This document shows, one piece after another, positions 2,983 through 54,476 of a stretch of 64,000 nt of DNA (its first letter is position 1; the number at the start of each line of letters is the position of its first letter). This stretch comes from Dictyostelium discoideum (Eukaryota), in the NCBI GenBank assembly GCA_000004695.1, contig CM000155.2:3232001-3296000 (forward strand). Reading direction: 5' to 3'. Under the pieces are notes generated by a model, which made no database searches, was not told the origin of the DNA, and saw nothing but the letters and a program-made list of their open reading frames with translations. The translations under genes were made by a program, and so were the position numbers.

Positions 2983-3026
2983 TTTGTAGCCAAATTGATG
3001 TAAATTTTTAAAATTTCATCAAAAAT

Positions 3027-3099
3027 GCCTGGATGGCTCAGTAGGCAGAGCGAGCGGCTGTTAACCGCTAGGTCCATGGTTCGATCCCATGTCTAGGCG
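3027..3099 (+). tRNA. tRNA-Asn (anticodon GTT).
   Basis: Cloverleaf: acceptor GCCTGGA/TCTAGGC, D-arm GCTC...GAGC, anticodon stem AGCGG/CCGCT with loop CTGTTAA, T-arm CATGG-TTCGATC-CCATG, discriminator G. Confidence 0.9.
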
Positions 3100-3132
3100 A
3101 TACTTTTCTATGAGAATAGAATTAGATCGCAG

Positions 3133-3143
3133 GTTCAATTCTA
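3133..3143 (+). promoter_or_regulatory. External B box (gGTTCAATTC), 34 nt downstream of tRNA-Asn.
   Basis: Match to the B-box consensus GGTTCGANTCC outside the tRNA body. Dictyostelium tRNA genes are known to carry such ex-B boxes. Confidence 0.6.
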
Positions 3144-3365: not shown

Positions 3366-4304
3366 CTAATTATAACGATTTGCATGACCATAACCTTTAT
3401 TATGACCAGCAGTAAAAGTTTTTAAAGTATAAATATACTTTTTTAAATGTGAATGATTTGGATATTGTTGTTCAAGTTTAGTTGAATATTTGTCTACTTT
3501 AATAATATATTTATTTAATAGACCAACACAATATTTTAAAGCTAAGTCAATTGAACCAAGTTGAATTGCTCTAACTTTAACAAAGTTTGTTAATAAAATT
3601 TCATTGATTTCCATTTTGAATGAACCACAATCATTGATCATTAAATTACAAAGTTCAAAATATTTAAAGAATTTTTTGAAATTTTTTGATTCTCTAATTT
3701 CATTCTCAACATATAAAGTTGAAGTACAAGAGGAAGCAGTAATTGTCATACCGAAATCACCATGTCTTGAATTGAAATAATCTTCAATGGAAAGTGATGA
3801 ATTTAATGATTTATATTTATTGGTTTTAATGGCACTTCTACTCCAATATTCAAAATCTCTAATTAATAAATCAACAGATTCTTTAACACCAACTCTATAG
3901 TATTCATCAAATAATCTCCAAATTTCACGACCAAATGGATCATGACTCTTACTTGATCTATCCATTAAATTATCCACATAATCCTCTTCATAATTACGTG
4001 ATTCATATATGTAATCATCTAAAATGAAAAGAAAATCCAACAATTTTGAATTTACCATATATTCATCCTTTTCACCCAATGGAAAATTCAAAGCAGCAAT
4101 TTTACCAATTTCATTCTTTTTTACATAATTCACAGCATTTTCATAGTTTTGAAAAAATTGTTTAACATATTCCATTTCTTGATTTTCAAAATCTTTATCA
4201 AATGGACTACTTTTAAAATCCCAAGGAAGAGTATACTTTGGAATTCTAATTTCTTGATCCAAAAATTGATTTTTATCCCAAGTAAATTTTATATCATAAT
4301 CCAT
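3366..4304 (-). CDS. Class I (microbial-type) terpene synthase, 312 aa, single exon.
   Basis: Aspartate-rich motif ILDDYIYE (DDxxD/E). NSE/DTE motif NDCGSFKME ((N,D)Dxx(S,T)xxxE). RY pair near the C-terminus (NRYN). Size and architecture fit Dictyostelium TPS genes. Confidence 0.85.
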   Translation of the reverse strand: MDYDIKFTWDKNQFLDQEIRIPKYTLPWDFKSSPFDKDFENQEMEYVKQFFQNYENAVNYVKKNEIGKIAALNFPLGEKDEYMVNSKLLDFLFILDDYIYESRNYEEDYVDNLMDRSSKSHDPFGREIWRLFDEYYRVGVKESVDLLIRDFEYWSRSAIKTNKYKSLNSSLSIEDYFNSRHGDFGMTITASSCTSTLYVENEIRESKNFKKFFKYFELCNLMINDCGSFKMEINEILLTNFVKVRAIQLGSIDLALKYCVGLLNKYIIKVDKYSTKLEQQYPNHSHLKKYIYTLKTFTAGHNKGYGHANRYN

Positions 4305-4525
4305 TTTTTTAAATTTTTTTTTTTTTTTTTTTAATAATTTTTATTTATGATTCAAAATTTTGGAAATATTTGATCAATTTAAATATAAAAAAAAAATGAT
4401 AAAAAAAAAAAAAAATAATAAAAAAAAAAAAAAAATAATAATTAAAAAAAAAAATTATTCTCTTAATTTGGAAATAAAAACAGTTTGATCCCTAATTTAT
4501 TATAAAAAATTTAAAATAAACTAAA

Positions 4526-4700
4526 ATATATTCAAACTTTTTAATATTTGTTCAACTGATGAAGATAAACTTCTTTGTTAACTACATCAGTAGAACAAAT
4601 ATTAAAAAGTTTGAATATTATTTAATTTATTTTAAATTAATATTCAAACTTTTTAATATTTGTTCAACTGATGTAGTTAACAAAGAAGATAAAATTAATT
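4526..4700. repeat. Nested palindrome / foldback structure in the TPS-P450 bidirectional promoter. Arm aatattcaaactttttaatatttgttc occurs direct (4528-4553), inverted (4593-4618) and direct again (4640-4667), with a partly palindromic core around gttaac.
   Basis: Read directly. A near-perfect hairpin is possible over 4528-4618. Confidence 0.8.
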
Positions 4701-4909
4701 AATTGAATGTTTTTATTTTGGAAATGGTCTTTTTATCCACGTAATAAACTGTTAATTAAAAAATAACAATCAGATTATAAAAAAAAAAAAATTATATTTT
4801 TAACAGATTTACCCTCAAAATATCAAAGGGGTTTTTTTTTTTTTAATTTTCCAAAAAAAAAAAAAAAAAAAAAAAAAACCAGTTGTGTTTTTTTAGGGCT
4901 TTATAAAAA

Positions 4910-4945
<36 letters not shown>

Positions 4946-4988
4946 TATATTAATTTTTTTTTTTTTGGAATGATATAATTTAAAGAAA

Positions 4989-5480
4989 ATGATTTTATTA
5001 ACACTTTTATATTTAATTATTTTTTATATTATAATAGATTTTATAAAAAAAAATTATAAAACAAAAAATCAATTACCATCACCATTAGGAATTGCATTAC
5101 CAATTATTGGTCATTTACATTTATTACGTACCGATCCATATAAAACATTAGCTAAAGCATCGAAAAAAACAGAACATGGTATTTTAAAATGTTGGAATGG
5201 TGAGCATTTAATGGTTGTAGTTGATAATCCATCAATAATTAAACAAATGTATGTAAATACAAATAATTTTACAGATAGACCACAAACCAAAGTATTTGAA
5301 ATCATTTCAAGAAATTATAAAAATAGTGGTTTTGCAAATGGTGAAAAATGGAAACATCTCAGAGGTTTATATGCACCAAGTTTTACAAAAATTAAATCAA
5401 GACCACATGAAAATATAATTTTAAAATATGTAAATTTTGAAATTAAATCTTTAAAAAATCATGCAATTACAAATTCAATT
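4989..5480 (+). CDS. Cytochrome P450, exon 1 of 2 (164 codons; membrane anchor and Pro-rich hinge LPSPLGIALPIIGHLHLL). Donor caattg|GTAAGT, phase 0.
   Basis: Typical P450 N-terminus. GTAAGT sits directly after codon 164. The ORF otherwise runs into C10/T-rich junk. Confidence 0.85.
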
Positions 5481-5587
5481 GTAAGTTTGACCCCCCCCCC
5501 CCTTTTTTTTATTTATTTTTAAATTTTAATTAATAAATCATTATTAACTTTTTCTTTTTTATTTTCTATTAATAATAAAATAAATAG

Positions 5588-6571
5588 TATAATCCATTTT
5601 TAATTGAAAATATTAATTCATTTGGTACAAAAGTTATTACAGAAATTATATTTGGTAGAGAGTTTAGTGAAAATGAAGTTTACTCATTAATTGGACCAAT
5701 GAATAAATTATTTGGTATATTGGATACACCATTTCCATCAGAGAGTATATCATTTTTAAAACCATTTTATAGAAGATCTTATAAAGAATGTGATAAACAA
5801 TGTGAAGAATTATTTAAATTGGTTGAAAAAGTTTATGATGATCATTTATTGAATCTAGACAAAGACAACCCAAAAGATGTAATGGATGTAATGATTGTTG
5901 AAACTGATTTCAAAGAAAAGGATCATGTAATTTGTATATGTTGTGATTTATTAATGGGTACAAAAGATACATTCAATACAATTGTTTTATGGTTTTTTGT
6001 ATTAATGATAAATTATCAAGATGTGCAATTGAAGGGATATCAAGAGATAATCAAGGTTTTGGAATGCACAGGTCGAGATCATGTAACAATTGAAGATATC
6101 GATAAATTACCATACATTGATGGAATTATTAAAGAAATCTCAAGAATTCATCCAGCAGGTCCTTTATCAGTACCAAGAACTGCAATCAATGATATAATGA
6201 TCAATGGTTATTTCATTCCAAAAGGTTGTCATGTTTTTCAAAATACTTATGGTGCAGTTTATAATTATATGAAAGAATCTGATGAACCTTGTAAAATGAA
6301 ACCAGAAAGATGGATTGAAAATGAAAAATTAAGAAAAGATGGTAAATTAGACCCAACTAATGATTTAGCATTGATTTCATTACCTTTTTCAAGCGGAATT
6401 AGAAATTGTCCTGGTGTTGGTTTTGCAGAGTATGAATTATTCTTATTATTTTCAAATATCATTTTAAATTTTCATTTATCAAGTCCAAATAATCTAAAAC
6501 TCAATGAAAGTGGTCATTTTGGTCTTACAATGAAACCATTTCCATTTTTAGTTGATTTAAAATTAAGATAA
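5588..6571 (+). CDS. Cytochrome P450, exon 2 of 2 (327 codons; EXXR = EISR, PERW, heme loop FSSGIRNCPG). The total protein is about 491 aa.
   Basis: Acceptor aaatAG at 5586-5587, then the frame is open from 5588 (YNPFLIENINSFG...). Canonical FxxGxRxCxG cysteine ligand motif. TAA stop at 6569-6571. Confidence 0.85.
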   Translation, partial: YNPFLIENINSFGTKVITEIIFGREFSENEVYSLIGPMNKLFGILDTPFPSESISFLKPFYRRSYKECDKQCEELFKLVEKVYDDHLLNLDKDNPKDVMDVMIVETDFKEKDHVICICCDLLMGTKDTFNTIVLWFFVLMINYQDVQLKGYQEIIKVLECTGRDHVTIEDIDKLPYIDGIIKEISRIHPAGPLSVPRTAINDIMINGYFIPKGCHVFQNTYGAVYNYMKESDEPCKMKPERWIENEKLRKDGKLDPTNDLALISLPFSSGIRNCPGVGFAEYELFLLFSNIILNFHLSSPNNLKLNESGHFGLTMKPFPFLVDLKLR

Positions 6572-6573
6572 TA

Positions 6574-6574
<1 letters not shown>

Positions 6575-6631
<57 letters not shown>

Positions 6632-6700
6632 TTTATTTTTATTTTTATTTTTATTTTTATTTTTATTTTTATTTTTATTTTTATTATTATTATCTTCTTT
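6575..6700. repeat. (ATT)n then (ATTTTT)n microsatellite.
   Basis: Read directly. Confidence 0.9.
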
Positions 6701-6980
6701 TTTAGTAAATATTTTTTATACAACATATTAATAAAATTAAAAATCATTTATTTTTCTTTATTTTTTTTTTTTTTTTTTTTTTATTTTTTTTTATTTGTAT
6801 ATAATATTTTAAAATCGATTTTTTGTAATTTGACATAAAAAAAAAAAAAAAAAATAAAAAAATAATAAAATTAAAAACAAAAATAAAAATAAAAACTCAC
6901 TTTCTTTTTTTTTTTATTTTAGAAATTATTATTATTTGTTTCTTTTTTAAATATAAAAAATTAAAAAAAAATTTTTAATA

Positions 6981-7230
6981 ATGTCACAAAATGAATATGA
7001 CAAAAGTAATTCACTTTTAAATATATTTTCAATAAAAAAAATAACGTTAGAGAATGAAACTCTACTAAATTCAAAGATACCATGGGAAATAATTAAGAAT
7101 GGTAATGTTATTGATTTAGGTTGTGGTAATGGATGGTTTTGTAGAGAAATGATTGAAAAAGGTGTAAACCAAATTATTGGTGTTGACATTTCTGAAAAAT
7201 TAATTAAAAAAGCAATAGAATTAAATAAAG

Positions 7231-7279
<49 letters not shown>

Positions 7280-7460
7280 AAAATTAAAATATTATGTCAC
7301 TGATTTAGATAATTTCCAACTTAATGAAACTCCTTTTAATTCATTAATTGGTTCATTTGATTTTGCATTTAGTTCATTTGTAACTCATTATCTATCAGAT
7401 TTAGAATCATATTTTAAAAAAGTTTACAATTTATTAAAATCAAATAATAATAATAATAAT

Positions 7461-7530
<70 letters not shown>

Positions 7531-7889
7531 GAGGTAGTAGTTTTATATTTTTAGCAGAACATCCAATGAGAACTTCAACAAAATGTATTGAAAATAAATT
7601 TATAAATCATAAATTTGAAGGTGATGAAAATTCAAAAATGGTTTGGCCAATTTCAGATTATAGTGAAGAAGGTAAAAGAGTAACTAATTGGGCTGGATCA
7701 AGTGGAATTATTAAATATCATTATACAATTGAAACTTATGTAAACACTTTAATTAAAGTAGGTTTTAAAATTGATTATCTAGGTGAATTAAATCTTGTAG
7801 AAAGACAATTACAATTTAGTAATTCTGGTGATATATCTATAGAAGCAAATAGACCATTTACACTATTTATTAAAGTGTCAAAAAATTAA
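6981..7889 (+). CDS. Class I SAM-dependent methyltransferase, paralog 1 (302 aa). Contains N14 and ~N40 Asn-tract insertions.
   Basis: Motif I VIDLGCGNGWF (GxGxG), post-I acidic IGVDIS, motif II FDFAFSS. 85-90% identical to the ORF at 9196-9987 outside the Asn tracts. Confidence 0.8.
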
Positions 7890-8642
7890 TAAAAAAAAAA
7901 AAAAAATAAAAAAAAAAAGTTAAAAAAGTAAATAATTTAAATTTAATAATAAATAATTAATAAAAAATAAAAATAAATGTAAATTTCATTTCATTATCAC
8001 AAAAATAAAATATATACGTTATTTTATTAATTTAAAAATTATTGTACATGTTGTGCCAAGAACTTTTATTAGAAAAATAAGATGAAATAAAATAAAATGA
8101 TCTTTATTTTATAATTTTCTTTTTAAATTTTTATTATTATTAAAATTATGAATTTTAATAATAAAATATTCAATCGACATTAATAAGTCCACGTGGTTTT
8201 TACCCACGTGGGGTGAGAAAAGTTTAATTATATAAATTTTGATAATACAAGATTTTATTGCAATAATCCAATTATAGTATTTTGATAATAAATAATTAAA
8301 TTGCATTATTCGACTAATTAATTAAATTATTTTCAATTTTATTTTTTATTTAATTTTAAATACAACATATTTAAAACTGGTTATCTTTAAAAAAAAAATA
8401 AAAAAATATTAATAGTTTTATAGTGTTTTTAAAAAAAAAAAAAAAAAATTTGGACGGATAATTGTGAAAAATTTGGACGGATAATGGTGAAAAAATAAGG
8501 ATAATCAAAAAAAACCCTTTTAATACAAAGATGGAAAAAGGGAAAACATATTTTTTAAAACTATGGAATTATCATAATGTTATTATTTCATGGATAAGGA
8601 TAATCAAAAAAAACCCTTTTAATTCAAAGATGGAAAAAGGGA

Positions 8643-8681
<39 letters not shown>

Positions 8682-9195
8682 TATTAGATTGAATTTATGG
8701 ATTTGGAGATTTTATATCGATACAAATATTTGGTAATTTTAATATGAAGCATTAACGATAAGCCCGTTGTGTTGCCATTGTGTAGCAAGTATTTCATGCA
8801 TCATATAGGTTCAATACAAATTTTCTATTTATAATTAACAATACCCCTTGTAATTTCTAATCTATGAATGTTTTAGTGTGAATTTTTTTTACAAAATTTC
8901 CAAGTCACCACTAAATAATAAAAAATAATAATAACTCTCTGTAAAAAAAAAAATATTGTTTAGGTTAATTATTACATATATGTGTTATTGTTTATTTAGT
9001 ACTTGATTGTTGCAGAAAAAAAAATATTTAAATTTAAATTTTACAGATTAAAAAAACTCATCGATGAATTTAACAGGTAAAATTAATATGATCCCGTATA
9101 AAAAAATTGATTTGAGTAAAAAAATATAAATTAACTTTTTTTTTTTTTTTTTATTTCAAAAAACTATTATTTGTTTAATAAATAAATTTTTAAAA

Positions 9196-9987
9196 ATGTC
9201 ACAAAATGAATATGACAAAAATGATTCACTTTTTAATAAATTTTCAAATAAAAATTTAACTATAGAGAATGAAACTCTACTATTTTCAATGATACCATGG
9301 GAAATTGTTAAGAATGGAAATGTTATTGATTTTGGTTGTGGTAATGGATGGTTTTGTAGAGAAATGATTGAAAAAGGTGTAAACCAAATTATTGGTGTTG
9401 ACATTTCTGAAAAATTAATTAAAAAAGCAATAGAATTAAATAAAGATAATAATGAAAAATCAAAATATTATGTCACTGATTTAGATAATTTCCAACTTAA
9501 TGAAACTCCTTTTAATTCATTAATTGGTTCATTTGATTTTGCATTTAGTTCATATTTAACTCATTATTTATCAGATTTAGAATCATTTTTTAAAAAAGTT
9601 TACAATTTATTAAAATCAAATAATAATAATGGTAGTAGTTTTATATTTTTTGCAGAACATCCAATGAGAACTTCAACAAAATGTATTGAAAATAAATTTA
9701 TTAGTCATAAATTTGAAGGTGATGAAAATTCAAAAATGGTTTGGCCAATTTCAAATTATAGTGAAGAAGGTAAAAGAGTTACTAAATGGGCTGGATCAAA
9801 TGGAATTGTTAAATATCATTATACAATTGAAACTTATGTAAACACTTTAATTAAAGTAGGTTTTAAAATTGATTATATAGGTGAATTAAATCTTGTAGAA
9901 AAACAATTACAACTTTGCAATTCTGGTGATATAACAATAGAAGCAAATAGTCCATTTACACTATTTATTAAAGTAATAAAAAATTAA
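9196..9987 (+). CDS. Class I SAM-dependent methyltransferase, paralog 2 (263 aa, no Asn tracts).
   Basis: Same motifs as 6981-7889. Tandem duplicate 2.2 kb downstream. Confidence 0.8.
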   Translation: MSQNEYDKNDSLFNKFSNKNLTIENETLLFSMIPWEIVKNGNVIDFGCGNGWFCREMIEKGVNQIIGVDISEKLIKKAIELNKDNNEKSKYYVTDLDNFQLNETPFNSLIGSFDFAFSSYLTHYLSDLESFFKKVYNLLKSNNNNGSSFIFFAEHPMRTSTKCIENKFISHKFEGDENSKMVWPISNYSEEGKRVTKWAGSNGIVKYHYTIETYVNTLIKVGFKIDYIGELNLVEKQLQLCNSGDITIEANSPFTLFIKVIKN

Positions 9988-10620
9988 TTAAAGAAAGCTT
10001 TAATTTTTTTAAAAAAGTAAATCATTTTTATATTAAAAAAAAAAAATAAAAAAAATAAAAAAAAAAAAATAAAAAAAATAAAAAAAAAAGATTTTTTAAT
10101 CTTTTTTTTTTTTTCACCTATCCTTTTTGACAAATTAACACAGCAATTTCAAAAGTTATGTTTAAAAATTAATTATTTATTTTTTTTTCCCCACCATTTT
10201 AGCTTTTTTTTGATACACACAGAATAATAAAGAAATATTAATAAAAATAAAGAAATAATAATAAAATTCTTTTTTTTTTTTTTTAAAAAATTATTATTTT
10301 ATTAATTACCAATCACGTAGTTTAGTGTGCTCGAAATTGATAAAATTATTATGTTAACAGACACGAAATATGTTCGTTTTACAATTTAAAAAAATAATGC
10401 AGTTTCTGTTTCTCGTTAAAATAATTGTGACCTAAACAAAAATTAAAAAAAAAAAAAATAAAAAAACAATTAAATAAAAAATAAAAATAAAAAATAAAAT
10501 AAAACTGGGATTCAAAAATAAAAGCAAGCTCTAATCTATTATAATTTTTAATTAAATATGTGTTAATCTAATTCTTCAATACACCTCTAAACTTTTCACT
10601 TATATAAAAAAAAAAAAAAA

Positions 10621-10905
10621 ATGACATTAATTGGTATACCACGTGGTACACCTCAAATTGAAGTTATGTTTGATGTTGATAGTAATGGTATTTTAAATGT
10701 TGCAGCTGAAGATAAAACTTCTAAAAAAGTTGAAAAAATAACTATCACCAATGACAAAGGTCGTCCCTCTCTAAAAGATATTAATAAAATGGTTGAAGAT
10801 GCAGAGAAATTTAAAGAACAAGATCAACAACAAATTTTGAAAGTTTATTTTACAAATTATTGCATAAATAAAAAAAAAAAAAAAGATTTACAAAATTTTA
10901 TTTAA
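10621..10905 (+). pseudogene. Internally deleted Hsp70 pseudogene. The first 18 nt of the hsp70 CDS (ATGACAtcAATTGGTATA) are fused to the substrate-binding-domain segment PRGTPQIEV...[10 protein letters not shown], then the sequence diverges.
   Basis: ~90% nucleotide identity of 10639-10845 to 12643-12850 of the adjacent hsp70. The start is identical to 11242-11259. Confidence 0.75.
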
Positions 10906-11241: not shown

Positions 11242-13134
11242 ATGACATCAATTGGTATAGATTTAGGAACAACATATTCTTGTGTTGGTGTTTGGTTGAA
11301 TGATCGTGTTGAAATTATTGCAAATGATCAAGGTAATAGAACTACTCCATCATATGTTGCATTCAATGATACAGAGCGTTTAATTGGTGATGCTGCAAAG
11401 AATCAAGTTGCAATGAATCCAATAAATACAGTTTTCGATGCAAAACGTTTAATTGGTAGGAAATTTTCAGATAGTGTTGTTCAAAGTGATATGAAACATT
11501 GGCCATTTAAAGTTATAACAAATAAAAACGATGATAAACCATTAATTCAAGTTGATTTCAAAGGTGAAACTAAAACATTCTCACCTGAAGAAATTTCATC
11601 AATGGTATTATCAAAAATGAAAGAAACTGCTGAATCATATTTAGGTAAACCTGTTAACAATGCAGTTATAACAGTTCCAGCTTATTTCAATGATGGACAA
11701 CGTCAAGCAACTAAGGATGCTGGTACAATTTCAAAATTAAATGTTCAACGTATCATTAATGAACCAAGTGCTGCTGCTATTGCATATGGTTTAGATAAGA
11801 AAGGTAGTAAAAGTGGTGAAATAAAAGTTTTAATATTCGATTTGGGTGGTGGTACATTTGATGTTTCATTACTATCAATTGATGATGGTGTATTTGAAGT
11901 TTTAGCAACAGCTGGTGATACTCATTTAGGTGGTGAAGATTTTGATAATCGTTTAGTGAATCACTTTGTAGATGAATTCAAACGTAAACATAAGAAGGAT
12001 ATAATGGGTAACCAACGTGCTCTTCGTCGTTTGAGAACTGCATGTGAACGTGCAAAAAGAACACTATCATCATCATCTCAAGCATCAGTTGAAATTGATT
12101 CACTTTATGATGGTATTGATTTCTATACCTCAATTACCAGAGCACGTTTTGAAGAACTTTGTTCTGACCTTTTCAATAATTGTATTGAACCAGTTGAAAA
12201 AGTTTTAAAAGATTGTAAATTGGATAAGAAATCAATAGATGAAATTGTATTAGTTGGTGGTTCAACTCGTATTCCAAAAGTTCAACAATTAATTCAAAAT
12301 CTTTTCAATGGTAAAGAATTAAATAAATCAATTAATCCTGACGAAGCCGTTGCATATGGTGCAGCAGTACAAGCTGCTATTCTATCAGGTGATAAAAGCT
12401 CAAGAATCTCTGAATTAATTTTCATTGATGTTGCACCATTATCATTGGGTATTGAAACTGTTGGTGGTGTAATGACAAACATCGTTCCAAGAAACACAAT
12501 TATCCCATGTAAAAAGACACAAACTTTTTCAACTCACACAGATAATCAAAGTGGTGTTTTAATTCAAGTTTATGAGGGTGAACGTACAATGACAAAAGAT
12601 AATAATCTATTGGGTAAATTTGAATTAACTGGTATCCCACCAGCACCACGTGGTACACCTCAAATTGAAGTTAGTTTCGATGTTGATAGTAATGGTATTT
12701 TAAATGTTACAGCTGAAGATAAAACTACTAAAAAAGTTGAAAAAATAACTATCACCAATGACAAAGGTCGTCTCTCTCTAAAAGATATTACTAAAATGGT
12801 TGAAGATGCAGAGAAATTTAAAGAACAAGATCAACAACAAAAAGAACGTATTGAATCAAAGAATAATCTTGAAAACTATATATTTTCTGTAAAAAATTCA
12901 ATTAATGACCAGAAAATCATTTCAAAACTCTCTAAATCTGATAAAAATATTATTGAATCTGAAACTGAAAGTACTCTTAAATGGTTAGAATCAAATCAAT
13001 CTGCCGAAAAGGATGAATTTAATCAAAAGATATCAGATCTTGAATCAATTGTTAACCCAATCCTTAGTAAATTCTATCAAGGTAATAATAATCCAAAACC
13101 AACCACAACTACTTTTAACCAAGATCTTGATTAA
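11242..13134 (+). CDS. Hsp70 family chaperone (630 aa, single exon). The C-terminus is ...FNQDLD rather than EEVD.
   Basis: [36 protein letters not shown] and SBD motifs across the full length. Confidence 0.95.
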
Positions 13135-14807: not shown

Positions 14808-16517
14808 ATGCCATCAATGGGTATAGATTTAGGAACAACATATTCTTGTGTTGGTGTTTGCAATGAAAAAGGTCGTATTGAAATTATTGCAAATGATCAA
14901 GGTAATAGAACTACCCCATCATATGTTTCATTTAATAATAGAGAATGTTTAATTGGAGATGATGCAATGAATCAAGTTGCAATGAATCCAGTTAATACCA
15001 TTTTCGATGTAAAACGTTTATTTGGTAGAAAATATTCAGATAGTGTTGTTCAAAGTGATATGAAACTTTGGCCATTTAAAGTTATAGCAAATAAATTTGA
15101 TGATAAACCATTAATTCAAGTTGATTTCAAAGGTGAAACTAAAACATTCTCACCTGAAGAAATTTCATCAATGGTATTATCAAAAATGAAAGAAATTGTA
15201 GAACAACACTTGGGTGAACCTGTTACAGATGCAGTTATAACAGTTCCAGCTTATTTCAATGATAGACAGCGCCATGCAACCAAATATGCAGGTACAATTT
15301 CAAATTTAAATGTATTAAGAATTATTAATGAACCAACTGCTACTGCAATTGCATATGGTTTACATAGGAGAGGTATTGATGATATGAAAGTTTTAATAAT
15401 CGATCTAGGTGGTGGTACATTTGATGTTTCATTATTCAATATAGAAGATGGTATATATGAAATTTTATTATCAGGTGGTGACAATCATTTAGGTGGTGCG
15501 GATTTTAATAATCGTTTAATGAATCACTTTATAGATGAATTTAAACTTAAACATAAAAAAGATATAACCAATAATCAACGTGCTATTTTTCGTTTAAGAA
15601 CTGCATGTGAACGTGCAAAGAGAACTTTATCAATTTCATCATTAGCATCGATTGAAATTGACTCACTTTATGATGGTATTGATTTTTATTCAACAATTAC
15701 AAGAACACATTTTGAAAAACTTTGTTCTGACCTTTTCCATAGTTGTATCGATCATGTTGAAACAATTTTAAATAAATGTAAATTAGATAAAAGTTTAGTA
15801 GATGAAATTGTATTAGCTGGTGGTTCAACTCAAATTCCAAAGATACAAAGAATGTTTAAAGAATACTTCAATGGTAAAGAATTTAACAACTCGATTAACC
15901 CTGATGAAGTTGTTGCATATGGTGCAGCAGTACAATCTGGAGTTATTTCAGGCAAAGGTTCAAACTTTCCTCAACTTATTTTTTTAAATGTTACACCATT
16001 ATCAATGGGTATTGAAACTGTTGGTGGAATAATGACAAATCTTGTTGAAAGAAATACTCATATTCCTATTAAAAAAACGCAAACTTTTTCAACCCAATAT
16101 GATAATCAAACCAATGTTTTAATTCAAATTTATGAAGGTGAACGTACAATGACTAAAGATAATAATCTAATTGGTACATTTGAATTAAATGGTATCCCAC
16201 CAGCACCACGTGGTGTTACCCAGATTGAAGTTTGTTTTGATGTTGATATAGATGGTATATTAACAGTTAGTGCAGAAGATAAAACCACAAAAAAAGTTCA
16301 AAAAATCACCATCTCCAATATTAATGATCATCTCTCAAAAGTAGAGATTGAAAAAATGATAGTAGATGGTGAGAAATTTAAACAACAAGATCAACAACAA
16401 AAAAAAGAACTTATTGAATCAAATTATAAAATATATTGTGGTGATGAAAACACATTAGATTTTGAAATTACTCAAAAATTGTTAGGATCAGCTCAATCTA
16501 CTGAAATGAACGAATGA
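14808..16517 (+). CDS. Divergent Hsp70 paralog (569 aa). Lacks the C-terminal lid/tail and has many substitutions (about 75% identical to 11242-13134).
   Basis: Conserved NBD and SBD-beta motifs are retained. It ends soon after the QQDQQQK segment. Confidence 0.85.
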
Positions 16518-18645: not shown

Positions 18646-18720
18646 CTAAAAAAAAAAAAAAAAAAAAAGTTAATATATTACAATAAATTTATAATAATAA
18701 TAATAAAATTAATAATTTAC

Positions 18721-19415
18721 CCTTTACTATTATATTTTATTAATTGTTCTTCTTGTTGTTGATTTAAATCAGAATGTTGATTTGTTGAATCAATTACAAT
18801 TTCTAACCAATCTTGAAAACTTTGTCTTAATAATCTATCAGCTTCATCAATTACTAAATAATTTAAATATTTTAAGGTGAAACCTAAAGTTTCATTTATA
18901 TGATCAACGATTCTACCAGGTGTTGAAACGATGATATCAACCAAACTTTCATAAAGTGCATGTTCGCCATATGAATGATTTTTAATTAATAATTTTTGTT
19001 CAATGTGAAATGGTTTTACACCTAATGAAAGTACAACTAAATCAGTTCCTTTAATAATTGATTGAAATGTTTTTTCAACTTGAATCACTAGATCATGAGT
19101 TGGTACAATCACTGCAACTCTAACTCTTCTAACTACTCTTTTAACAATTTTCTGTACTAATGGTATTGCATATGCCAATGTTTTACCACTACCTGTTGGT
19201 GCACAAACACAAATATCATGTCCTTCAGTACGATTTATAAATGGTACTATCTCTTGTTGAACTGGAAATAAATTTATAATTGATTGTTCTTTTAAATTAT
19301 TTATTAACCATTCTTCAATACCAAATGATTCCAATGTATTATTATTATTATTTATATTTTCATTATAATTTATTGTTGTCATTATTATAACGTATTGCAA
19401 CTTTTTTTTTTTCAA
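18721..19415 (-). CDS. DEAD-box RNA helicase, exon 1 of 3 (Q motif FPVQQ, motif I APTGSGKT, Ia PTHDL, TPGR, motif II DEAD). Donor gg|GTAAAT, phase 2.
   Basis: Motifs read directly. DDX51/Dbp6-like by its N-terminal organisation. Confidence 0.85.
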
Positions 19416-21626: not shown

Positions 21627-23171
21627 TTAAAGAATTGTTGGTAAAGAATCGTAACCATTTGTAGCAGGTAAAGTTTCTCTTTTCGAATAATAGGGTTCAA
21701 GTACTACATCTTTAGGGAAATTTCTGAGACGTGGTTCACCTGTTGATACATCGATAGTGAGTTGAAGTATTTTTGTAAATTGAGGACATTCTGAAAGAAA
21801 ATCTGGAAGGGTTTTCTTTGCACCAGCAGTATCATCAGCCTTTACTAAATAATGACGAATACGTTTTTCAGGATCGGGATCATCTACTTTATAGCCAACT
21901 GCGAAATGGCCAGCATGACGTTCACTGAAACGAATTAAAAAGGTGCCTTGCTCTTCATTACGAAGGGCTTCTTCGACACTTTGACGAGAAATGAAACCAT
22001 AGATGAGACCCGATTGCCACATGGAGCAAACGTGACGTTGATAACGTAGTTTTTGTAAACCTTTACCAAACCAAATCCAAAATGAATCAAAACTAGATTG
22101 AGGGATCATTGGTTTACTTCCGAAAAATTGATGATGAATGTACATGAGTTCGTGACGTGATAGGTAACGAGTTGGTTTCATAAAGTCTTGACGAGTTGCA
22201 CGCAAGAAATGTCTTTGAAGTTTATTGGCATAGGAAGCCCAAGGTATTTCATTGTTATTTCCAAAGGAATCTTTCTTTAGGAGAGTACCATCTGATTCTT
22301 CATATTGACATTCATTGGTGATAACGATGAATGGTGAGGTTGGTGGTGATTCAATGTTTACAGCGGTACCACCAACCACTTGAACTTGCATTCCAAATTT
22401 GAGGGTTACTGGATTCTTTCTGGTACCATTTAAAAATTTGAGATGATATTTTGCCAAACGATTGGTTTCATCCATTGATACCACCTCTGTTTCAATGGTT
22501 TTTGGAGATGAAGAAGTCTTTGAGCCTTGTTGATTCTCAACGATCATTGTTGCTCTAACTTTACCGATCATTTGTAACTCTGTACGAGTGCCACAAAGTA
22601 ATTGAACGACTACTGGATCATCTTCCAATGGTTTACACTTTGTAATTACCATTGGGAATGGTTGTTCAATCACTACCAAAGCAGCGATAGTTGGTGGTGG
22701 ATTTTGTGGACGAACTAAAAGTTGTAACTCTTCATGATACAATTCCAATTGAATACTTTGAATGGTGAGTTCATGTAAAAGGAAGATAACATTTCTAATC
22801 TCTGGTGGTGATAAAACAAAGGTTTGGTCAATTTGTTGAAGTGAGGTGATCTCTGCATCAATTTGTTTTTTCAATGTATTTTGTTCATTATCCAACATTT
22901 GGAATGTCTCTTTTTGTGGGTGTGCCAACACTTGTTTTTGTACAATTTTCATCTTATCCAATTGTTCCTTTTGAGCCAAATGTAACTTTAAACATTCATT
23001 AATGATTTGTTGATGTGGTTGTAATACATTTCCATATGGTGTATTTATTAAAAGATGATCTGGTAATGGCAAATTATTATTATTACAATGTTGAATTGAT
23101 GATAATATATTTGGTTCAATTATATCATCTGGTGATCCAATTCCATTTGAGCTATTACTACTATTACTACC

Positions 23172-23203
<32 letters not shown>

Positions 23204-23457
23204 TATTATTGATATGGGTTGGAATTGGATGTAAATGTTGTGGTTCAACTGGTAATTGATGTAAAATTGGTAATTCAATTTGTTGCATTTGTGGTTGTGT
23301 TGGTTGATTTAATTGATTTTGATGATTTAATTGATTTTGATTATTTAATTGATTTTGATTATTTAATTGATTTTGATTATTTAATTGATTTTGGTGATTT
23401 AATTGATTTTGATGATTTTGATGAATTTGTTGGTGTTGTTGGTGTTGTTGTTGTTGG

Positions 23458-23522
<65 letters not shown>

Positions 23523-23870
23523 TTGTTGATGATGTTGTTGTTGTTGTTGTTGTTGTTGTTGCTGTTGTTGTTGTTGTTGTTGTTGTTGTTGCTGTTGTTG
23601 CTGTTGTTGTTGTTGTTGTTGTTGTTGTTGGAATTGGAATTGTTGTTGTTGTAAATGTTGTTGTTCTAATTGTTGTTGTTGAATTTGTGCTTGTTGTGCT
23701 TGAATTTGTGCTTGTTGTTGTTGAATTTGTTGGGCCTGTTGTTGTTGAATTTGTGCTTGATCTATTTGTGGGTTGTTAACTTGTTGAATTGGTTGCAATT
23801 GTTGTTGTAATAATTGCTGTTGTTGAATTTGTGCACCATCAATAGTTTGGAAATATGGATCAATGTTAAC
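21627..23870 (-). CDS. STAT transcription factor, main exon (747 codons). Contains the poly-Gln/His tract, coiled-coil, DNA-binding, SH2 ([15 protein letters not shown]) and C-terminal tail. Assembled protein is about 931 aa. Possibly the STATc-type member.
   Basis: SH2 FLVRES-like GTFLIRFSE and STAT-type linker/DBD similarity. Acceptor aaaaAG|GTTAAC at 23872-23871. The track ORF N-terminus [10 protein letters not shown]... is intron read-through. Confidence 0.85.
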
Positions 23871-24180
23871 CTTTTTTTTTTTTATTTTTTTTGTTTTATT
23901 TTGAAATTTAAAAAAAAAAAGACAAATTAATAATATGAAACAAGAATTTAATTTAAAATAGAAAAATAAAAAAAAATATCCAAGTAAAAATAAAAAAATG
24001 TTTATTAGAAAAAAAAAAAAAACTAATAAAAAAAAAAAATTAATAAAAAAAAAAAAAAAAAAAAAAGAAAAGATATTTTTTTTTTTTTTTTTCAAAAATC
24101 CATTATCATAATCAAAACCCTTTGAAAAAAAAAAATAAAAAAATAAAAAAAAATAAAATAAAATAATGGATGACACTTAC

Positions 24181-33689: not shown

Positions 33690-34427
33690 ATGAATGAAAA
33701 TTCAATTAGTCAATATTCAGAAATTGATTTAATAAGTGATAATCCATTTAAAAATTATTTTGTAGTTGAAAAATTACTAAATAATAATAATAATAATATT
33801 AACGATACCATTGGTAATAATCACTATTCAAATAATAATAATAATAATAAATTTTTAAATAATAATAATAAAAATAAAATAAATAAAAAACAAATAATAT
33901 TAAAAGTTCAAAAGAAATCAAATAAAGCAATGAAAGAATTAACAGTTATGCAAAAAATTGGATATTATTCAAATCATGTTGTTAATGTTTATGGATATTT
34001 TAATTTAAAAGGATGTGATAGAATGTTAAAACCTAGATTACTCTCTGACAATGATGAGTTGATATTCATGGAATGTGAAGATATGGGACAATATCAAACT
34101 TTAGAAATGATAATTGAACGTCGTAAATGTAAAGGATCATTAGTGATGACAAGATTCATCATGAGAGGTATACTTGCATCTGCTTACTATTTCGAATCAC
34201 ATCAAGTAATTCACCAAACTCTTCACCCAGGTAACATATACATCTTGGAAGATTCCCTAGGAACCGACGATCAATCAGTTGTAAAATTTTCAAATTTAGA
34301 ACACTGTTTATTAATTGGTTCTACAAATTCATCATTATCATCATTATCATCATCAACATCATCATCTTCATCCTCATCATCATCTACAAATTGTAATAAT
34401 AATACCACCGAAAATAATAATAATAAT

Positions 34428-34481
<54 letters not shown>

Positions 34482-34877
34482 TCATTAAATGATAGATTTG
34501 TACTTGGTAAAGATTCAGTATGTTATAGTATTTATAGTGATAGACATCAGAGTAGAAATTTATTTAAAGTTGTAAGTTCAAATACAGTTTCTTTTACAGT
34601 TGGTATTATTTATTTGGAATTATTATTATCAACTATTTATGATCACGTTTTTCCTAATGAAGAGTATATAAATTCATTGAGAGAGATAGTAAGGAATGGG
34701 AAATTGGATATCTATACAAATCAAGCAACAAACACTAAATATTTTAGATTTAATCAAAATCATCAAATTGAAATAACTGATTTAATTAAAGATGATATCT
34801 CATTAATATTAACTTTATTACAAGATTCATCAACTAGACCAACAATAACACAATTTATTATTGATTATTTATTTTAA
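33690..34877 (+). CDS. Protein kinase-like protein, probable pseudokinase (395 aa).
   Basis: Kinase-fold landmarks: ILKV (VAIK), E in helix C, hinge FMECEDMG. HQTLHPGNIYI replaces HRDLKPxN (catalytic Asp to Thr). VVKFSNLEHC replaces DFG. No APE. Confidence 0.6.
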
Positions 34878-40269: not shown

Positions 40270-41613
40270 ATGACGTCATTACATAAACAAATTATTGAAT
40301 CACATAATAATGATATAACCAAATTGAAATCATCAATGTCAACAAGAGCAGCTGCTAGAAGAAGTGTTTGTTTATCTTCAATGTCTTATACATTAGGTGC
40401 TGATGATGTTACACCAATCACCTCAAATACAACCCCTAGTAATAATAATAATAATAATAATACTACCACCACCATAACTACCACAACTACCACCCCAACC
40501 ATATCACCACTAAAGCAATCAACTACAGGTAGTATTATACCCAAATCAATTTTAGTTACAAAATCAGGCTCAAAGGAGGAACCTATTGTATCATCCTCAA
40601 AATCAAGTAGTAATAGTAGTAGTATCAATAATAACTTTAATAATTTATATTCAGCATCAACATTTAGTAGTAGTACAAAGAAAGTACATGAAAGACCAAG
40701 TATAAATCCAGGTTTTAGAAAACCAAGAGAGGCATTATTAAGTGGTAATAGTGATAGTGGTATTATTAAAAAACCATCTTCATCATCTACTTCTTCTTCT
40801 TCTTCTTCTTCTTCAACTACTAGTAATATAAAAGCACCAATTCAAATTTCACATTCTAGCAATAGTGGTAGTAGTAGTAGTGGTGGTAATAATAATAATA
40901 GTGATGATAATAGTGGCAGCTCTACAATTAAACATACTGCTGCATCATTATCAAAAATGAAGTTATCACCATCGCACACAATTTCTGATTCTCCAAGATC
41001 CTCAACTATGAAATCTAGATCTGTTTCAATTTCAAATGGTAGTTTATTCTCACCAACCAATACTTCTGTAAATAATAGCAATAACAATACATCATCAAAT
41101 ATAAAAACCCCAACCAAATCATCAATATCTGAGAATTTAGATCAAAATACACCACCACCACCATCATCATCATCAACAACAAAAACACCAACTGCAACAA
41201 CAACAACAACAACAACAACAACATCATCATCGTCATCGACATCAACAAATACAACACCTTCTAAATCATCAGTGGATGATGTTTTTGCAAGATTAGCCAA
41301 TGTATCAAAACCTGCAATTAAATCAAGATCATTATCTGTTTCTGCAAGTTTGGCAAGGGTTGAACAATCCCCACCAACTAAAGATAAGGGAGATAAAGAA
41401 TCTTCATCTTCGTCCTCCTCTTCTTCATCTTCATTTTCTAGTAAATTTACAAAAATACTTAGGAGTTCATCAAAAACACCAACACCAACTTCATCCAACA
41501 CTACAGTACAACCCTCAACAACCTCATTATCAGCATCAAAGATATCATCTAGAAAAGATACAAAATCATTATCATCTTTTTCAACTACAACTACTACTAC
41601 TACTTTAAAATCC

Positions 41614-41652
<39 letters not shown>

Positions 41653-42246
41653 TCAAATATAGCATCAAGCTCATCAAGTTCATCAAATAATTTAACAAAC
41701 TTACTCACACAATCACAATCAATTTCGTCAACATCAACATCAACAACAACAACACCAACTTCAACTTCACCAACATTGGCATCATCAATGTCTGTATTAT
41801 CATCACCAACTTCAACCACTACCACCTCCACCTCTACCACCTCCACAACAACAACACCAACCAAATCATCATGTACTATTATAACACCATCGATTGCATT
41901 GAAATTATATATAAACGATTTAACATCAGCAGAACAATCAGAGATTCTGGATTATCCTCAAATCTATTTCACTGGTAATACCAATAAAAAAACAAAATTC
42001 AATTCACAATTACCAAACAATGGTTATGATAATGATATTGGTGAATATAAAGTGGTTGAACGTGATCATATAGCATATCGTTTTGAAATCGTTTCAATAC
42101 TTGGTCAAGGTTCATTCTGTCAAGTAGTAAAAGGTTATGATTATAAAACTGGTGAAATGGTTGCTTTAAAAATTTTACGTAATCAAAAAAGATTTCATAA
42201 TCAAGCTTTAACTGAAATTAAAATTTTAGAATATTTAAAAACAAAT
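40270..42246 (+). CDS. DYRK-family kinase, exon 1 of 3. A 600-aa Ser/Thr-rich N-terminal region precedes kinase subdomains I-IV (GQGSFCQVVKGYD...VALKIL...RFHNQALTEIKILEYLKTN). Donor aat|GTAAGA, phase 0.
   Basis: DYRK2/3-type DH-box and RFHxQA motif. Confidence 0.8.
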
Positions 42247-42299
42247 GTAAGATTTAAAACATATTTATATAAAAAAAAAAAAAAACCTATTATTAATTT

Positions 42300-42335
<36 letters not shown>

Positions 42336-42339
42336 TTAG

Positions 42340-48560: not shown

Positions 48561-50352
48561 TAATAAATCAATTTTACAACAATTAGGATTTTTAGTTGCA
48601 AGACAAAAAATTGTACCAGATAATTTTAATTATGATTCAATTAGTGATATTATAAATAATTCAAAATTAAGTGAATACTTTATGAATTTAGCAACTGATT
48701 TAGATATTAGAGAACCAAAATTACCAGAGGAAATTTTCCAATCTCATTTAGATTCAACCAGTGCAATTGCAGATTCAGCAAGAATGAATTTAGCTTCATC
48801 ATTTGTAAATGCCTTTGTTAATGCTGGTTTCGGTAAAGATAAATTGATGACCGCTGAAGAAGATACAAAATGGTGGTTCAAGAATAGAGAATTGGGTATC
48901 CTTTCAACTGTTGCTTCAACTGGTATGGTTGTACTTTGGGATATTGATGGTGGTTTAACAAAGATTGATAAATTTTTATACTCTCAAGAGAAACATTGTA
49001 GCAATGGTGCTTTGATGGCTATTGGTATGTTAACAAGTGGTATTAGAAGTGAAATGGATCCAGCACTCTCTCTATTGGCCGAACATATCAATAGTTCAAA
49101 CACTGGTACTCGTATTTCTGCCATCTTTGGTTTGGGTTTAGCCTATGCCGGCACACAAAGACAAGATCTCATGAGCTTACTCTCACCATGTCTCGACGAT
49201 GATAAGGAGAAGATGGAATTTATTGGTATCGTTGGTTTAGCTTTGGGTTTAATTTTCATTGGTTCTTGTGATCCTGAATTATCAACCCTCTTTGTACAAA
49301 CTCTTATTCAACGTGGTACCGCCGCAAGCGAATCTCATGCTCGTTTCCTTCATTTGGGTTTAGGTTTACTTTACCTCGGTAAACAAGATGCCGCCGAGTT
49401 GGCCTTGGAAACATTGAAAGCCATCGAAGGTAAAGGTGGTGAGTATGCCCGTCTTACAGTTGAAGCTTGCGCTTACGCAGGTACTGGTAATGTATTGAAG
49501 GTTCAAAATATGCTCCATTTCTGTAGTGATGGCCAAGAAAATCCACATCATGGTTTAGCCGTACTCTCAATCGCTTTGATTGCAATGGGTGAAGAGTTGG
49601 GTTCAGATATGTGTCTCAGAATGTTTGATCATCTCCTTCAAAAGGGTAATGTACACATTAAACGTGCTATCCCATTGGCATTGGGTTTATTATCACCATC
49701 AAATCCACGTATTGCCATTATGGATATTCTTAGTAAACTTTCACATGACAATGATCCAGAAGTTGCTCAAGGTGCCATCCTTTCATTGGGTTTGATTGGT
49801 GCTGGTACAAATAATGCTCGTATTGGTGGTATGTTAAGAGCTTTAGCCGTTTTCTATGGTAAAGATGTCCATTTATTCTTTGTTCGTATCGCTCAAGGTT
49901 TACTTCATTTAGGTAAGGGTACCATGACTATCAATCCATATCATAGTGATCGTACTTTAATGTCACCAGTGGCAGTGGGTGGTTTATTAGCTCTCTTACA
50001 TGCTGGTCTCGACATTAAAAATATCCTCTCAACTCAATCTCACTATTTATTCTTTTCAATCGTTTGTAGTATGTATCCACGTATGTTAATGACCCTCGAT
50101 GAGGATCTTAAACCATTACCAGTAAGCGTTCGTGTTGGTCAATCCGTTGATATCGTTGGTTTAGCAGGAAAACCAAAAACAATCACTGGTTTCCAAACTC
50201 ATACAACTCCAGTACTCTTGGGTTATAACGAACGTGCTGAACTCGCCACTGATGATTACATTCCACTCACAAACATCTTAGAAGGTATTGTAATTCTTAA
50301 ACCAAATCCAAATGCATCTGTAACTTCACCATTAGCTTCAAAAAAAAATTAA
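48561..50352 (+). CDS. psmD2: Rpn1/PSMD2, exon 3 of 3 (PC repeats, ...SARMNLASSFVNAFVNAGFG...YHSDR...TITGFQTHTTPVLL...). Total protein is about 893 aa.
   Basis: Acceptor aaaaAG at 48559-48560, phase 2 (AA+T = Asn). High identity to PSMD2 throughout. Confidence 0.9.
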
Positions 50353-54300: not shown

Positions 54301-54476
54301 ATTATTTGCATTGTTTCGGGATGATTAGTTGTAGTTTTACTCTTATATTGATAATTATTTGTTACAGATTTTGATCCACTTGATGATTTTAAATAATAAC
54401 ATCTATAAAGTAATGACATTAAATTAAATTTAATTGATCCTTTGATTTCATTGGTTTTTAATTCATTTTCAATCAT
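51369..54476 (-). CDS. RCC1-repeat and BTB/POZ domain protein (1035 aa from the first ATG). Two RCC1 blade regions flank a BTB segment (DCTIISNDGKIKIKAHKSILISRLNYFKNLL).
   Basis: RCC1 signatures (CGxxHxxAL, GWGANTFNSIG, YGMGCADLNQL) and a BTB core, read directly. Architecture resembles RCBTB/IBtk-type proteins. Confidence 0.75.
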   Translation of the reverse strand: MIENELKTNEIKGSIKFNLMSLLYRCYYLKSSSGSKSVTNNYQYKSKTTTNHPETMQIMNQSDNISDMVLSRNRSVSVQFENETLEQRESKRIKFTTTNTDDESCDDQKGVNGDEKNSVYNFYDDLNFQYYLFSSDLFVRDRIFKFKTPIKSISCGRYFSSILDSNGMVWNWGLFFEVCSNGQASPTHPYPMKKPIKKIASGHHHCIALATDGSVYGWGANTFNSIGIVTSNNGNIKTPTPIEFINYNGEINNNNNSNNYYINDYTRNNNENDSEILKISAGGFNSAFITKNGNLFVCGRNDRFQLGIEETTASPPPLFTIEPDKKYLPSILVASSSITRDYSYLINNKQFSDLHITFGKDKNTEEIAYCHLILLTILENDELLNQLIQLKLKSINKIVKIDIIEFLNLVIKTKNYNGKGDDDDDFNKESNKKIILDQLIEENQLFSNSFIDFISFIYTNTTSKRNMKILFQYSKLFNCKQLTNYLNETSFNIIQEESDLSIPSKLLKRFNNDDDNLSDCTIISNDGKIKIKAHKSILISRLNYFKNLLLVDQIDNSNDSNDSNEIKLNDKTIPDNHLILIIAYLYCDRIKFDLLPQEIVTGDFVLSLCSTSDQLKLTRFKDGLLKLISNSITKENAISLLLWSKNNSYSLERFIKCFISLHVEFINSEHYDPTFLPFPLNQSPANQQTPTHVAKHEKFVDVAVGAKLMLALTVDNKLYQLGIGSDRSRKPIQQITLPFPDENTIIKKISCGSSHWIAVTENNKIYGMGCADLNQLVEGSRKFCYNPTLISDSNKYNNAKAGFYASMYWNDLSNFPLHPNGLNNNNNDNNNNNSLKVDKPITIEVYNSSSSSLWFFKNYDFIDSLLKNKLSGSDDEKQQEQENSNDEFTKSIISTTSACLPPYLYELISNKENGNDNTIQLFGFSKELIEKSFLKTTKDLNINSGDEILDLLFLTTSFGNYKLTNELFGILKKSIDLKQACILFTLIHKSKYSLQLAFLFNYLLGYIGKNRLKILQDTELFNSIPISLLDLISSK

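Follow-up and report, generated by a model that had tools for sequence, protein, structure and literature searches.

A 64,000-nucleotide stretch of Dictyostelium discoideum chromosome 6 (contig CM000155.2 of assembly GCA_000004695.1, positions 3,232,001 to 3,296,000; this whole stretch is called the window here, and positions are counted from its first letter) carries a terpene synthase gene, a cytochrome P450 (P450) gene and two S-adenosylmethionine (SAM)-dependent methyltransferase genes, MT1 and MT2, side by side between 3366 and 9987. The question that this locus raises is whether the two methyltransferases take part in the terpenoid pathway of their neighbours, as the original prediction, made from the letters of this DNA, had suggested in describing a compact terpenoid cluster of four genes. 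Our answer is that the stretch very probably consists of two unrelated units, namely the published gene pair for the volatile discodiene and a neighbouring methyltransferase array. That the methyltransferases have no part in the discodiene pathway we infer from expression, synteny, the instability of the array, and chemistry together with protein family. The gene identities, anatomy, synteny and copy-number variation given below come from our own analysis, and the enzyme activities and expression patterns are taken from the literature.

The gene anatomy was derived from open reading frames (ORFs), enumeration of splice combinations, Pfam profiles and exact-sequence look-up in a protein collection; the base composition of the window is 21% G+C. 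All four predicted genes were found in their places (ORFs, splice enumeration, Pfam), within 3366-9987 and with no other gene between them, as follows:

3366 to 4304, minus strand: DdTPS8 (tps8), discoidol synthase, a microbial-type class I sesquiterpene synthase of 312 amino acids (aa) in a single exon (ORF, exact match)
4305 to 4988, no strand assigned: shared head-to-head DdTPS8/CYP521A1 promoter, 684 bp (intergenic span)
4989 to 5480, plus strand: CYP521A1 exon 1, residues 1-164 (splice enumeration)
5481 to 5587, plus strand: CYP521A1 intron, 107 nt, GTAAGT...AAATAG (splice enumeration, sequence)
5588 to 6571, plus strand: CYP521A1 exon 2, residues 165-491, with EISR, PERW and the heme loop (splice enumeration, motifs)
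6981 to 7889, plus strand: MT1, class I SAM-dependent methyltransferase of 302 aa, recent tandem paralog of staK (ORF, Pfam)
7890 to 9195, plus strand: staK 5' intergenic region, 1306 bp, presumably the piece fused to lacZ by Forbes et al. (intergenic span)
9196 to 9987, plus strand: MT2, which is staK (DDB_G0293670, Q54BE2), class I SAM-dependent methyltransferase of 263 aa (exact match)

The terpene synthase/P450 core of the stretch is the already published DdTPS8-CYP521A1 discodiene pair of D. discoideum chromosome 6. By exact-sequence look-up, the 312-aa terpene synthase is residue for residue TPS8_DICDI (Q54BE5, XP_629084.1), and it matches the Pfam profile PF19086 (Terpene_syn_C_2) over residues 87-264 (E = 1.5e-12, 48.1 bits against a cutoff of 23.7). 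The Asp-rich motif had been read earlier as a DDxxD with the letters DDYIY; these letters are present, but position 5 is a tyrosine and the motif, DDYIYE at residues 96-101, is of the form DDxxxE and not a strict DDxxD. DDxxxE is a known variant of the Asp-rich motif among microbial-type terpene synthases. The NSE motif NDCGSFKME lies at residue 224, and a C-terminal RY pair stands ~80 residues further on, at 310-311. For the P450 gene, all GT..AG combinations were enumerated, and the 107-nt intron is the sole in-frame combination that yields a 491-aa protein; the look-up found this spliced product to be identical to CYP521A1 (cytochrome P450 monooxygenase 521A1, Q1ZXA1, XP_001134489.1). It matches PF00067 (E = 4.4e-70) and has the heme loop FSSGIRNCPG at residue 431, the ExxR motif (EISR) at 347 and PERW at 403. 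The two exons, FSSGIRNCPG, NDCGSFKME and the methyltransferase motif I GCGNGW of the original prediction were all recovered by motif scan. The intron carries near its 5' end a run of twelve C (5491-5502) followed by eight T, which is unusual for a genome of 21% G+C. The start codons of DdTPS8 (4304, minus strand) and CYP521A1 (4989, plus strand) are arranged head to head across a spacer of 684 bp, so that the shared, divergent promoter read earlier is there with a length of 684 bp and not 680 bp; the published spacer, also head to head, is 685 bp (PMC6524965). Both core proteins, their arrangement, the organism and the chromosome are the same as in the published discodiene cluster (Chen et al. 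2019, eLife 8:e44352, PMC6524965), with no difference in the core, and the exact matches answer with yes the earlier question whether this is the terpene synthase/P450 pair reported from D. discoideum. The downstream methyltransferases are never mentioned in that paper (0 occurrences of 'methyltransferase').

The published chemistry of the pair accounts for its product without a methyl transfer. Purified DdTPS8 converts farnesyl diphosphate (FDP or FPP) via hedycaryol into a single product, the new C15 alcohol discoidol (PMC6524965). CYP521A1, the discodiene synthase, breaks a C-C bond of discoidol by oxidation; the molecule's only oxygen, that of a tertiary alcohol, is taken off in this step as the sole oxygen-bearing group leaves as acetone and water, and the product discodiene is a conjugated C12H18 diene, a volatile trisnorsesquiterpene without O, N or S (PMC6524965). 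The nor-sesquiterpene alcohol that had been named as the product of the reported pair is therefore not what the pair makes: discoidol, the alcohol, is a C15 intermediate, and the pathway ends in a hydrocarbon (PMC6524965). Since discodiene has no heteroatom and CYP521A1 removes the oxygen-bearing group instead of hydroxylating (PMC6524965), there would be no substrate for the O-methylation of a hydroxylated terpene that had been proposed. In agreement with the two-enzyme scheme, a tps8 insertion mutant is late at culmination and has lost one major peak, at m/z 162, from its headspace, and Escherichia coli given TPS8, CYP521A1 and the redB reductase makes both discoidol and the compound of m/z 162, a methyltransferase not being needed (PMC6524965).

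The expression of the pair and that of MT2 differ in time and in cell type. No other P450 is co-expressed with tps8 as tightly as CYP521A1 (r=0.994), and both genes of the pair are nearly silent in growing cells, reach their maximum at 16 h, at the slug stage, and then fall (PMC6524965); DdTPS8 is one of two DdTPS genes whose expression is higher in prespore than in prestalk cells (PMC6156593). MT2 is DDB_G0293670, which was named staK as a marker of stalk and basal disc (Forbes et al. 2022, Front Cell Dev Biol 10:899316, PMC9117722), and the staK 5' intergenic region driving lacZ gives staining in stalk and basal disc (PMC9117722). In RNA sequencing (RNA-seq) of replicate pairs, staK stands, in percent of its maximum, at 0/0 in vegetative cells, 0/0 in the lawn, 0/0 in aggregates, 0/0.5 in tipped mounds, 0/0.6 in slugs, 35/19 in culminants and 100/100 in fruiting bodies, and in purified cells at 100/40/43 in stalk, ≤0.035 in spores, ≤0.006 in cup cells and 0 in vegetative cells (PMC9117722). 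The gene is inducible by cyclic di-GMP (c-di-GMP), in synergy with differentiation-inducing factor 1 (DIF-1) (PMC9117722). By these published data, which concern MT2 only, staK is off at the 16-h slug stage, when tps8 and cyp521A1 peak. Expression uncorrelated with the terpene synthase/P450 pair, which the original prediction had named as evidence against its cluster, is thus what the published data show for MT2 (PMC9117722, PMC6524965, PMC6156593). MT2 and the gene of the staK paper are the same by sequence and by locus tag, and that paper reports a Methyltransf_23-type domain and conservation in taxon group 4 only; the gene is used there solely as an expression marker, and its tandem paralog, the copy-number variation of the array and the discodiene neighbours are not noted (PMC9117722).

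The surroundings of the methyltransferases in related species point the same way. We compared the locus with those of three other group-4 species, D. firmibasis (L001), D. citrinum (L002) and D. dimigraforme (L004), and in all three a methyltransferase pair immediately precedes the genes that also come after MT2 in the window, namely Hsp70, a 111-aa gene, a DEAD-box helicase and TRM13. One member of each pair is a staK-type ortholog (69-77% identity), and it stands head to head with a divergent second copy, MTa, that is ~55% identical to staK (L001 8971-9786, L002 8671-9624 and L004 9329-9649, all on the minus strand) and is truncated in D. dimigraforme. The D. discoideum locus has lost its MTa copy; no MTa remnant was found in the window, where tblastn matches only MT1 and MT2. 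Within 10 kb of the methyltransferase-Hsp70 block of the three species, tblastn gave no match to TPS8 or CYP521A1, and the upstream flanks of the three loci have no tblastx similarity to the D. discoideum flank beyond TPS8. Because the methyltransferases are tied to Hsp70 in three species in which TPS8 and CYP521A1 are not nearby, they belong to the Hsp70 block, and the TPS8-CYP521A1 pair sits across a D. discoideum-lineage-specific synteny breakpoint from them. In a word-indexed search of annotated proteomes, TPS8 had no homolog outside D. discoideum and D. cf. discoideum at E ≤ 1e-10, a maximum too strict for distant paralogs such as DdTPS4 and DpTPS6, so that it shows the absence of close orthologs only; the best match of CYP521A1 outside the D. 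discoideum lineage in annotated proteomes is 35% identical. The methyltransferase, well conserved in the three species, therefore persists there without a close TPS8 or CYP521A1 homolog in the annotated proteomes. D. purpureum has been reported to lack a CYP521A1 ortholog and to carry its TPS8 ortholog, DpTPS6, outside any cluster with a P450 (PMC6524965). The lack of a close TPS8 or CYP521A1 ortholog in the newly sequenced group-4 proteomes fits discodiene as a species-specific volatile. Judged as a cluster, then, the four genes are contiguous; MT2 is not co-expressed with the pair, and in the three group-4 species the methyltransferases and the pair are neither co-inherited nor co-localised.

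The array is also unstable in copy number. Between CYP521A1 and Hsp70 there is one methyltransferase copy in D. cf. discoideum, two are present in AX4, and three in the isolate GCA_054859385.1; in the locus excerpts the copies lie at L003 6317-7219, L005 7790-10792 and L006 6864-10816 (copy number 1, 2 or 3). The middle copy of the three-gene array of GCA_054859385.1 (L006 8900-9703), annotated as 238 aa, has an in-frame stop in the SAM-binding motif I (GCGNG*F), which makes it a pseudogene. The TPS8-CYP521A1 pair is constant across the same isolates of the D. discoideum complex. In AX4 the duplicated DNA extends over ~6885-7977 and ~9120-10065 and includes ~96 bp common to both copies upstream of the ATG, and in a neighbour-joining tree all D. 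discoideum methyltransferase copies form one clade. MT1 and MT2 are 88.5% identical over 253 ungapped columns, and their main difference is two poly-Asn insertions in MT1. The ratio of nonsynonymous to synonymous substitutions (dN/dS) between them is 0.77 at dS=0.066; comparisons between species give 0.17-0.5. The higher value fits a redundant array under relaxed constraint, in which copies come and go. The exact sequence of MT1 is absent from the protein collection (exact-sequence look-up), and the AX4-type assembly GCA_054883475.1 has an annotated gene of 302 aa for MT1. The tandem paralog of staK and the variation from one to three copies, a pseudogene included, are additions to the staK paper (PMC9117722). 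The poly-Asn tracts have expanded independently in the methyltransferase copies and differ in loop position and length: MT1 has a tract of 16 Asn and an Asn-rich stretch of ~30 residues (7240-7286 and 7446-7530), the D. cf. discoideum copy has ~41 Asn, MTa of D. citrinum more than 60 residues, and staK almost none.

The protein family gives no sign of a terpenoid substrate. Both MT1 and MT2 match the Pfam families Methyltransf_23/11/25/31/12 (E=1e-12 to 1e-15), with the motif I VIDxGCGNGW at residue 43 (VIDFGCGNGW) and the acidic end of strand beta-2, IGVDIS, at 66. The solved structures nearest to MT2 are PDB 3bkw (E=1.5e-28) and 3g5l (E=6e-23), aligned over nearly the full length, and a ToxA protein comes next. 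The alignment with 3bkw and 3g5l takes in the C-terminal half with its WPI..Y..EG.R and KYH.T motifs; their identity to MT2 is low, and they were deposited as (putative) SAM-dependent methyltransferases with no substrate named and are thus uninformative on the function of MT2. Bacterial homologs comparable to these two are ~33% identical to MT2. The juvenile-hormone acid methyltransferase matches MT2 in the Rossmann core alone (E~5e-5, PDB search), no NCBIfam model reaches its cutoff for the methyltransferases (the best, BioC, scores 40 bits against 185), and neither the NCBIfam nor the PDB search gave any specific similarity of MT1 or MT2 to known prenyl or terpenoid methyltransferases. The substrate of staK is most likely a small molecule unrelated to discodiene.

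We also considered that the methyltransferases might have come into group-4 Dictyostelium by recent horizontal transfer from enterobacterial prey, which would explain their foreign look in this neighbourhood. The word-indexed search seemed to favour this, as identity dropped from 55-83% among group-4 sequences to ~33% in full-length matches to class I methyltransferases of Enterobacter and Leclercia. However, an exhaustive HMMER search of 1.84 billion representatives, with name look-up, recovered homologs of 37-41% identity across the Dictyostelia (Tieghemostelium lacteum, D. purpureum, Heterostelium album, Polysphondylium violaceum and Acytostelium subglobosum), all of which outscore every bacterial match. 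The gap in the word-indexed search is an artefact of its sensitivity; we rejected the transfer, which we regard as extremely unlikely. These remoter members also widen the distribution of the family to which staK belongs; staK itself was scored as confined to group 4 in the staK paper (PMC9117722).

The intergenic DNA was examined next to the coding sequences. We infer a bidirectional promoter role of 4305-4988 from the arrangement of the two genes and their published co-expression. The only part of this promoter that is not of low complexity is a repeat block at 4508-4707, composed of inverted repeat units of ~60 nt in forward-reverse-forward order, with arms 88-90% complementary. The D. cf. 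discoideum promoter has a single unit (an indel of ~105 bp), the palindromic expansion being specific to the AX4-type sequence, and an intergenic alignment shows three blocks conserved between the two, at 4460-4498, 4746-4778 and 4811-4831, which are candidate cis-elements. We looked for cis-elements common to the TPS8/CYP521A1 promoter and the methyltransferase upstream regions and found none. From the CYP521A1 stop codon to MT1 there is a 409-bp spacer of microsatellite sequence with 5% G+C; a long (ATT)n microsatellite and then (TTTTTA)n occupy 6572-6700, right after the stop codon. Past the CYP521A1 stop codon, an AATAAA (6730) and a TATA-like element (6798) faintly suggest that CYP521A1 and MT1 are separate transcription units. 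In the staK 5' region, two copies of TTTGGACGGATAAT lie at 8449-8485, 23 bp apart, two units of 62 nt (8495-8556 and 8594-8655, 94% identical and 99 bp apart) contain GGATAATCAAAAAAAACCCTTTTAAT, and a pair of CCACGTGG is located at 8189 and 8204. The TTTGGACGGATAAT and 62-nt copies form two sets of tandem direct repeats, and neither set occurs in the other isolates or species examined; both are confined to the AX4-type sequence.

Taken together, the reading with two unrelated units would run as follows. In the first unit (3366-6571), DdTPS8 cyclises FPP via hedycaryol to discoidol and CYP521A1 turns discoidol into discodiene; tps8 and cyp521A1 would be co-transcribed from the 684-bp bidirectional promoter during multicellular development, with a maximum at 16 h. 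The second unit (6981-9987) would be a young tandem array of class I SAM-methyltransferases, staK and its paralog, in the conserved Hsp70 block; staK is switched on under its own promoter only in terminally differentiating stalk and basal-disc cells, through c-di-GMP with DIF-1 synergy. A rearrangement in the D. discoideum lineage would have put the TPS8-CYP521A1 pair beside the methyltransferase-Hsp70 block.

Several points weigh against this reading. Biosynthetic clusters do grow by recruiting neighbours, and in every D. discoideum isolate examined the methyltransferases adjoin CYP521A1 on the same strand. For MT1, which lies directly 3' of CYP521A1, the literature yielded no expression data, and this copy may be regulated unlike staK, as the shared sequence upstream of the ATG is only ~96 bp. 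TPS8 and staK expression overlap in part during culmination, and discodiene is diffusible, so that distinct producing cell types do not strictly exclude a common pathway. The absence of orthologs was scored in annotated proteomes with a word-indexed search and not by whole-genome tblastn. Finally, the published chemistry covers headspace volatiles only, and a non-volatile methylated derivative would escape it (PMC6524965). On these grounds a terpenoid cluster of four or three genes could be upheld, in which a product of DdTPS8 or CYP521A1 is the substrate of MT1, staK or both and is turned into a yet-undetected methylated terpenoid; either discodiene or FPP could be C-methylated, or discoidol O-methylated. 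The tight same-strand adjacency to CYP521A1 across 409 bp, its retention in all D. discoideum isolates examined and the profiling of volatiles alone would all be accommodated. Such a cluster is, however, hard to reconcile with the mismatch between staK and the pair in time and cell type, with a C12H18 end product free of O, N and S whose precursor loses its lone tertiary alcohol to CYP521A1, with the loss of one peak only in the tps8 knockout, and with the sufficiency of three genes (TPS8, CYP521A1 and redB) for the native product. The methyltransferases moreover sit beside Hsp70 where TPS8 and CYP521A1 are not within 10 kb and have no close homolog in the annotated proteomes, their copy number varies with one copy a pseudogene, and they bear no specific likeness to known prenyl or terpenoid methyltransferases. 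We consider this cluster very unlikely; the extension of the pair to the methyltransferases, as originally drawn, finds no support in staK expression, synteny, array stability or chemistry.

A further reading is a division of fates between the two copies, with staK keeping an ancestral stalk role while MT1 joins the discodiene pair or comes under common regulation with it, so that a cluster is forming. Only ~96 bp upstream of the ATG were duplicated, so that the promoters of MT1 and staK differ, the dN/dS of 0.77 also fits relaxed or diversifying selection after a recent duplication, and the juxtaposition with TPS8-CYP521A1 is peculiar to the D. discoideum lineage. However, the single methyltransferase of D. 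cf. discoideum already occupies the MT1 position, which is therefore not a novelty that followed the duplication, and relaxed constraint acting on a redundant array with a pseudogene accounts equally well for the raised dN/dS. The chemistry speaks against this reading just as it does against the four-gene cluster, and the AATAAA at 6730 and the TATA-like element at 6798 point, weakly, to separate transcription units. We hold this division of fates to be quite improbable. Its chemical form, in which MT1 would methylate a discoidol- or discodiene-derived terpenoid, or another terpenoid, to a non-volatile product overlooked by headspace analysis in a cluster still in formation, is no less doubtful to us, and even when the two recruitment readings are taken together they remain unlikely. 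The two-unit reading, with the methyltransferases as bystanders, is the one we retain.

The layout of the locus is similar to that of the terpene synthase/P450 clusters of fungi, plants and bacteria that contain tailoring methyltransferases, with everything here within 6.6 kb. Unlike in those clusters, the methyltransferase here differs from the pair in timing and cell type, is not co-inherited with it, and meets an end product without a methyl acceptor. Little at this locus is new, as the pair has been published as a functionally validated cluster and one methyltransferase as a cell-type marker. The useful result is a negative one: gene adjacency alone would wrongly enlarge this cluster, and that the methyltransferases are bystanders is indicated alike by the timing and cell type of expression, by comparative synteny and by the chemistry of the product.

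A Pfam survey found no other secondary-metabolism genes in the window. Its remaining features include the following:

155 to 742: C-terminal exon of a ComC-like protein
3026 to 3100, plus strand: tRNA-Asn(GTT), 266 bp beyond the TPS8 stop codon
10621 to 10905: Hsp70 C-terminal fragment
11242 to 13134: full-length Hsp70 gene hspH2, DDB_G0293674 (primer matching)
14808 to 16517: second full-length Hsp70 gene
18717 to 19412, minus strand: DEAD-box helicase
21627 to 24173, minus strand: Dictyostelium STAT-family transcription factor with Dict-STAT coiled-coil, STATa_Ig, EF-hand_12 and SH2 domains (Pfam survey)
33690 to 34874 and 40270 to 42336: protein kinases
48682 to 50349: proteasome subunit RPN1
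51369 to 54473, minus strand: RCC1/BTB protein

The Hsp70 fragment at 10621-10905 is probably a pseudogene remnant, and D. cf. discoideum has the same fragment and two copies. The gene hspH2 has been reported as a 'unicellular' gene whose knockout has no developmental phenotype. The STAT-family gene lies ~12 kb downstream of staK, and no link to the discodiene question is suggested by it. Downstream of tRNA-Asn, at a distance of ~32 nt, GGTTCAATTCT at 3132-3142 forms a second B-box-like sequence, which looks like the external B box that Dictyostelium tRNA genes typically have.

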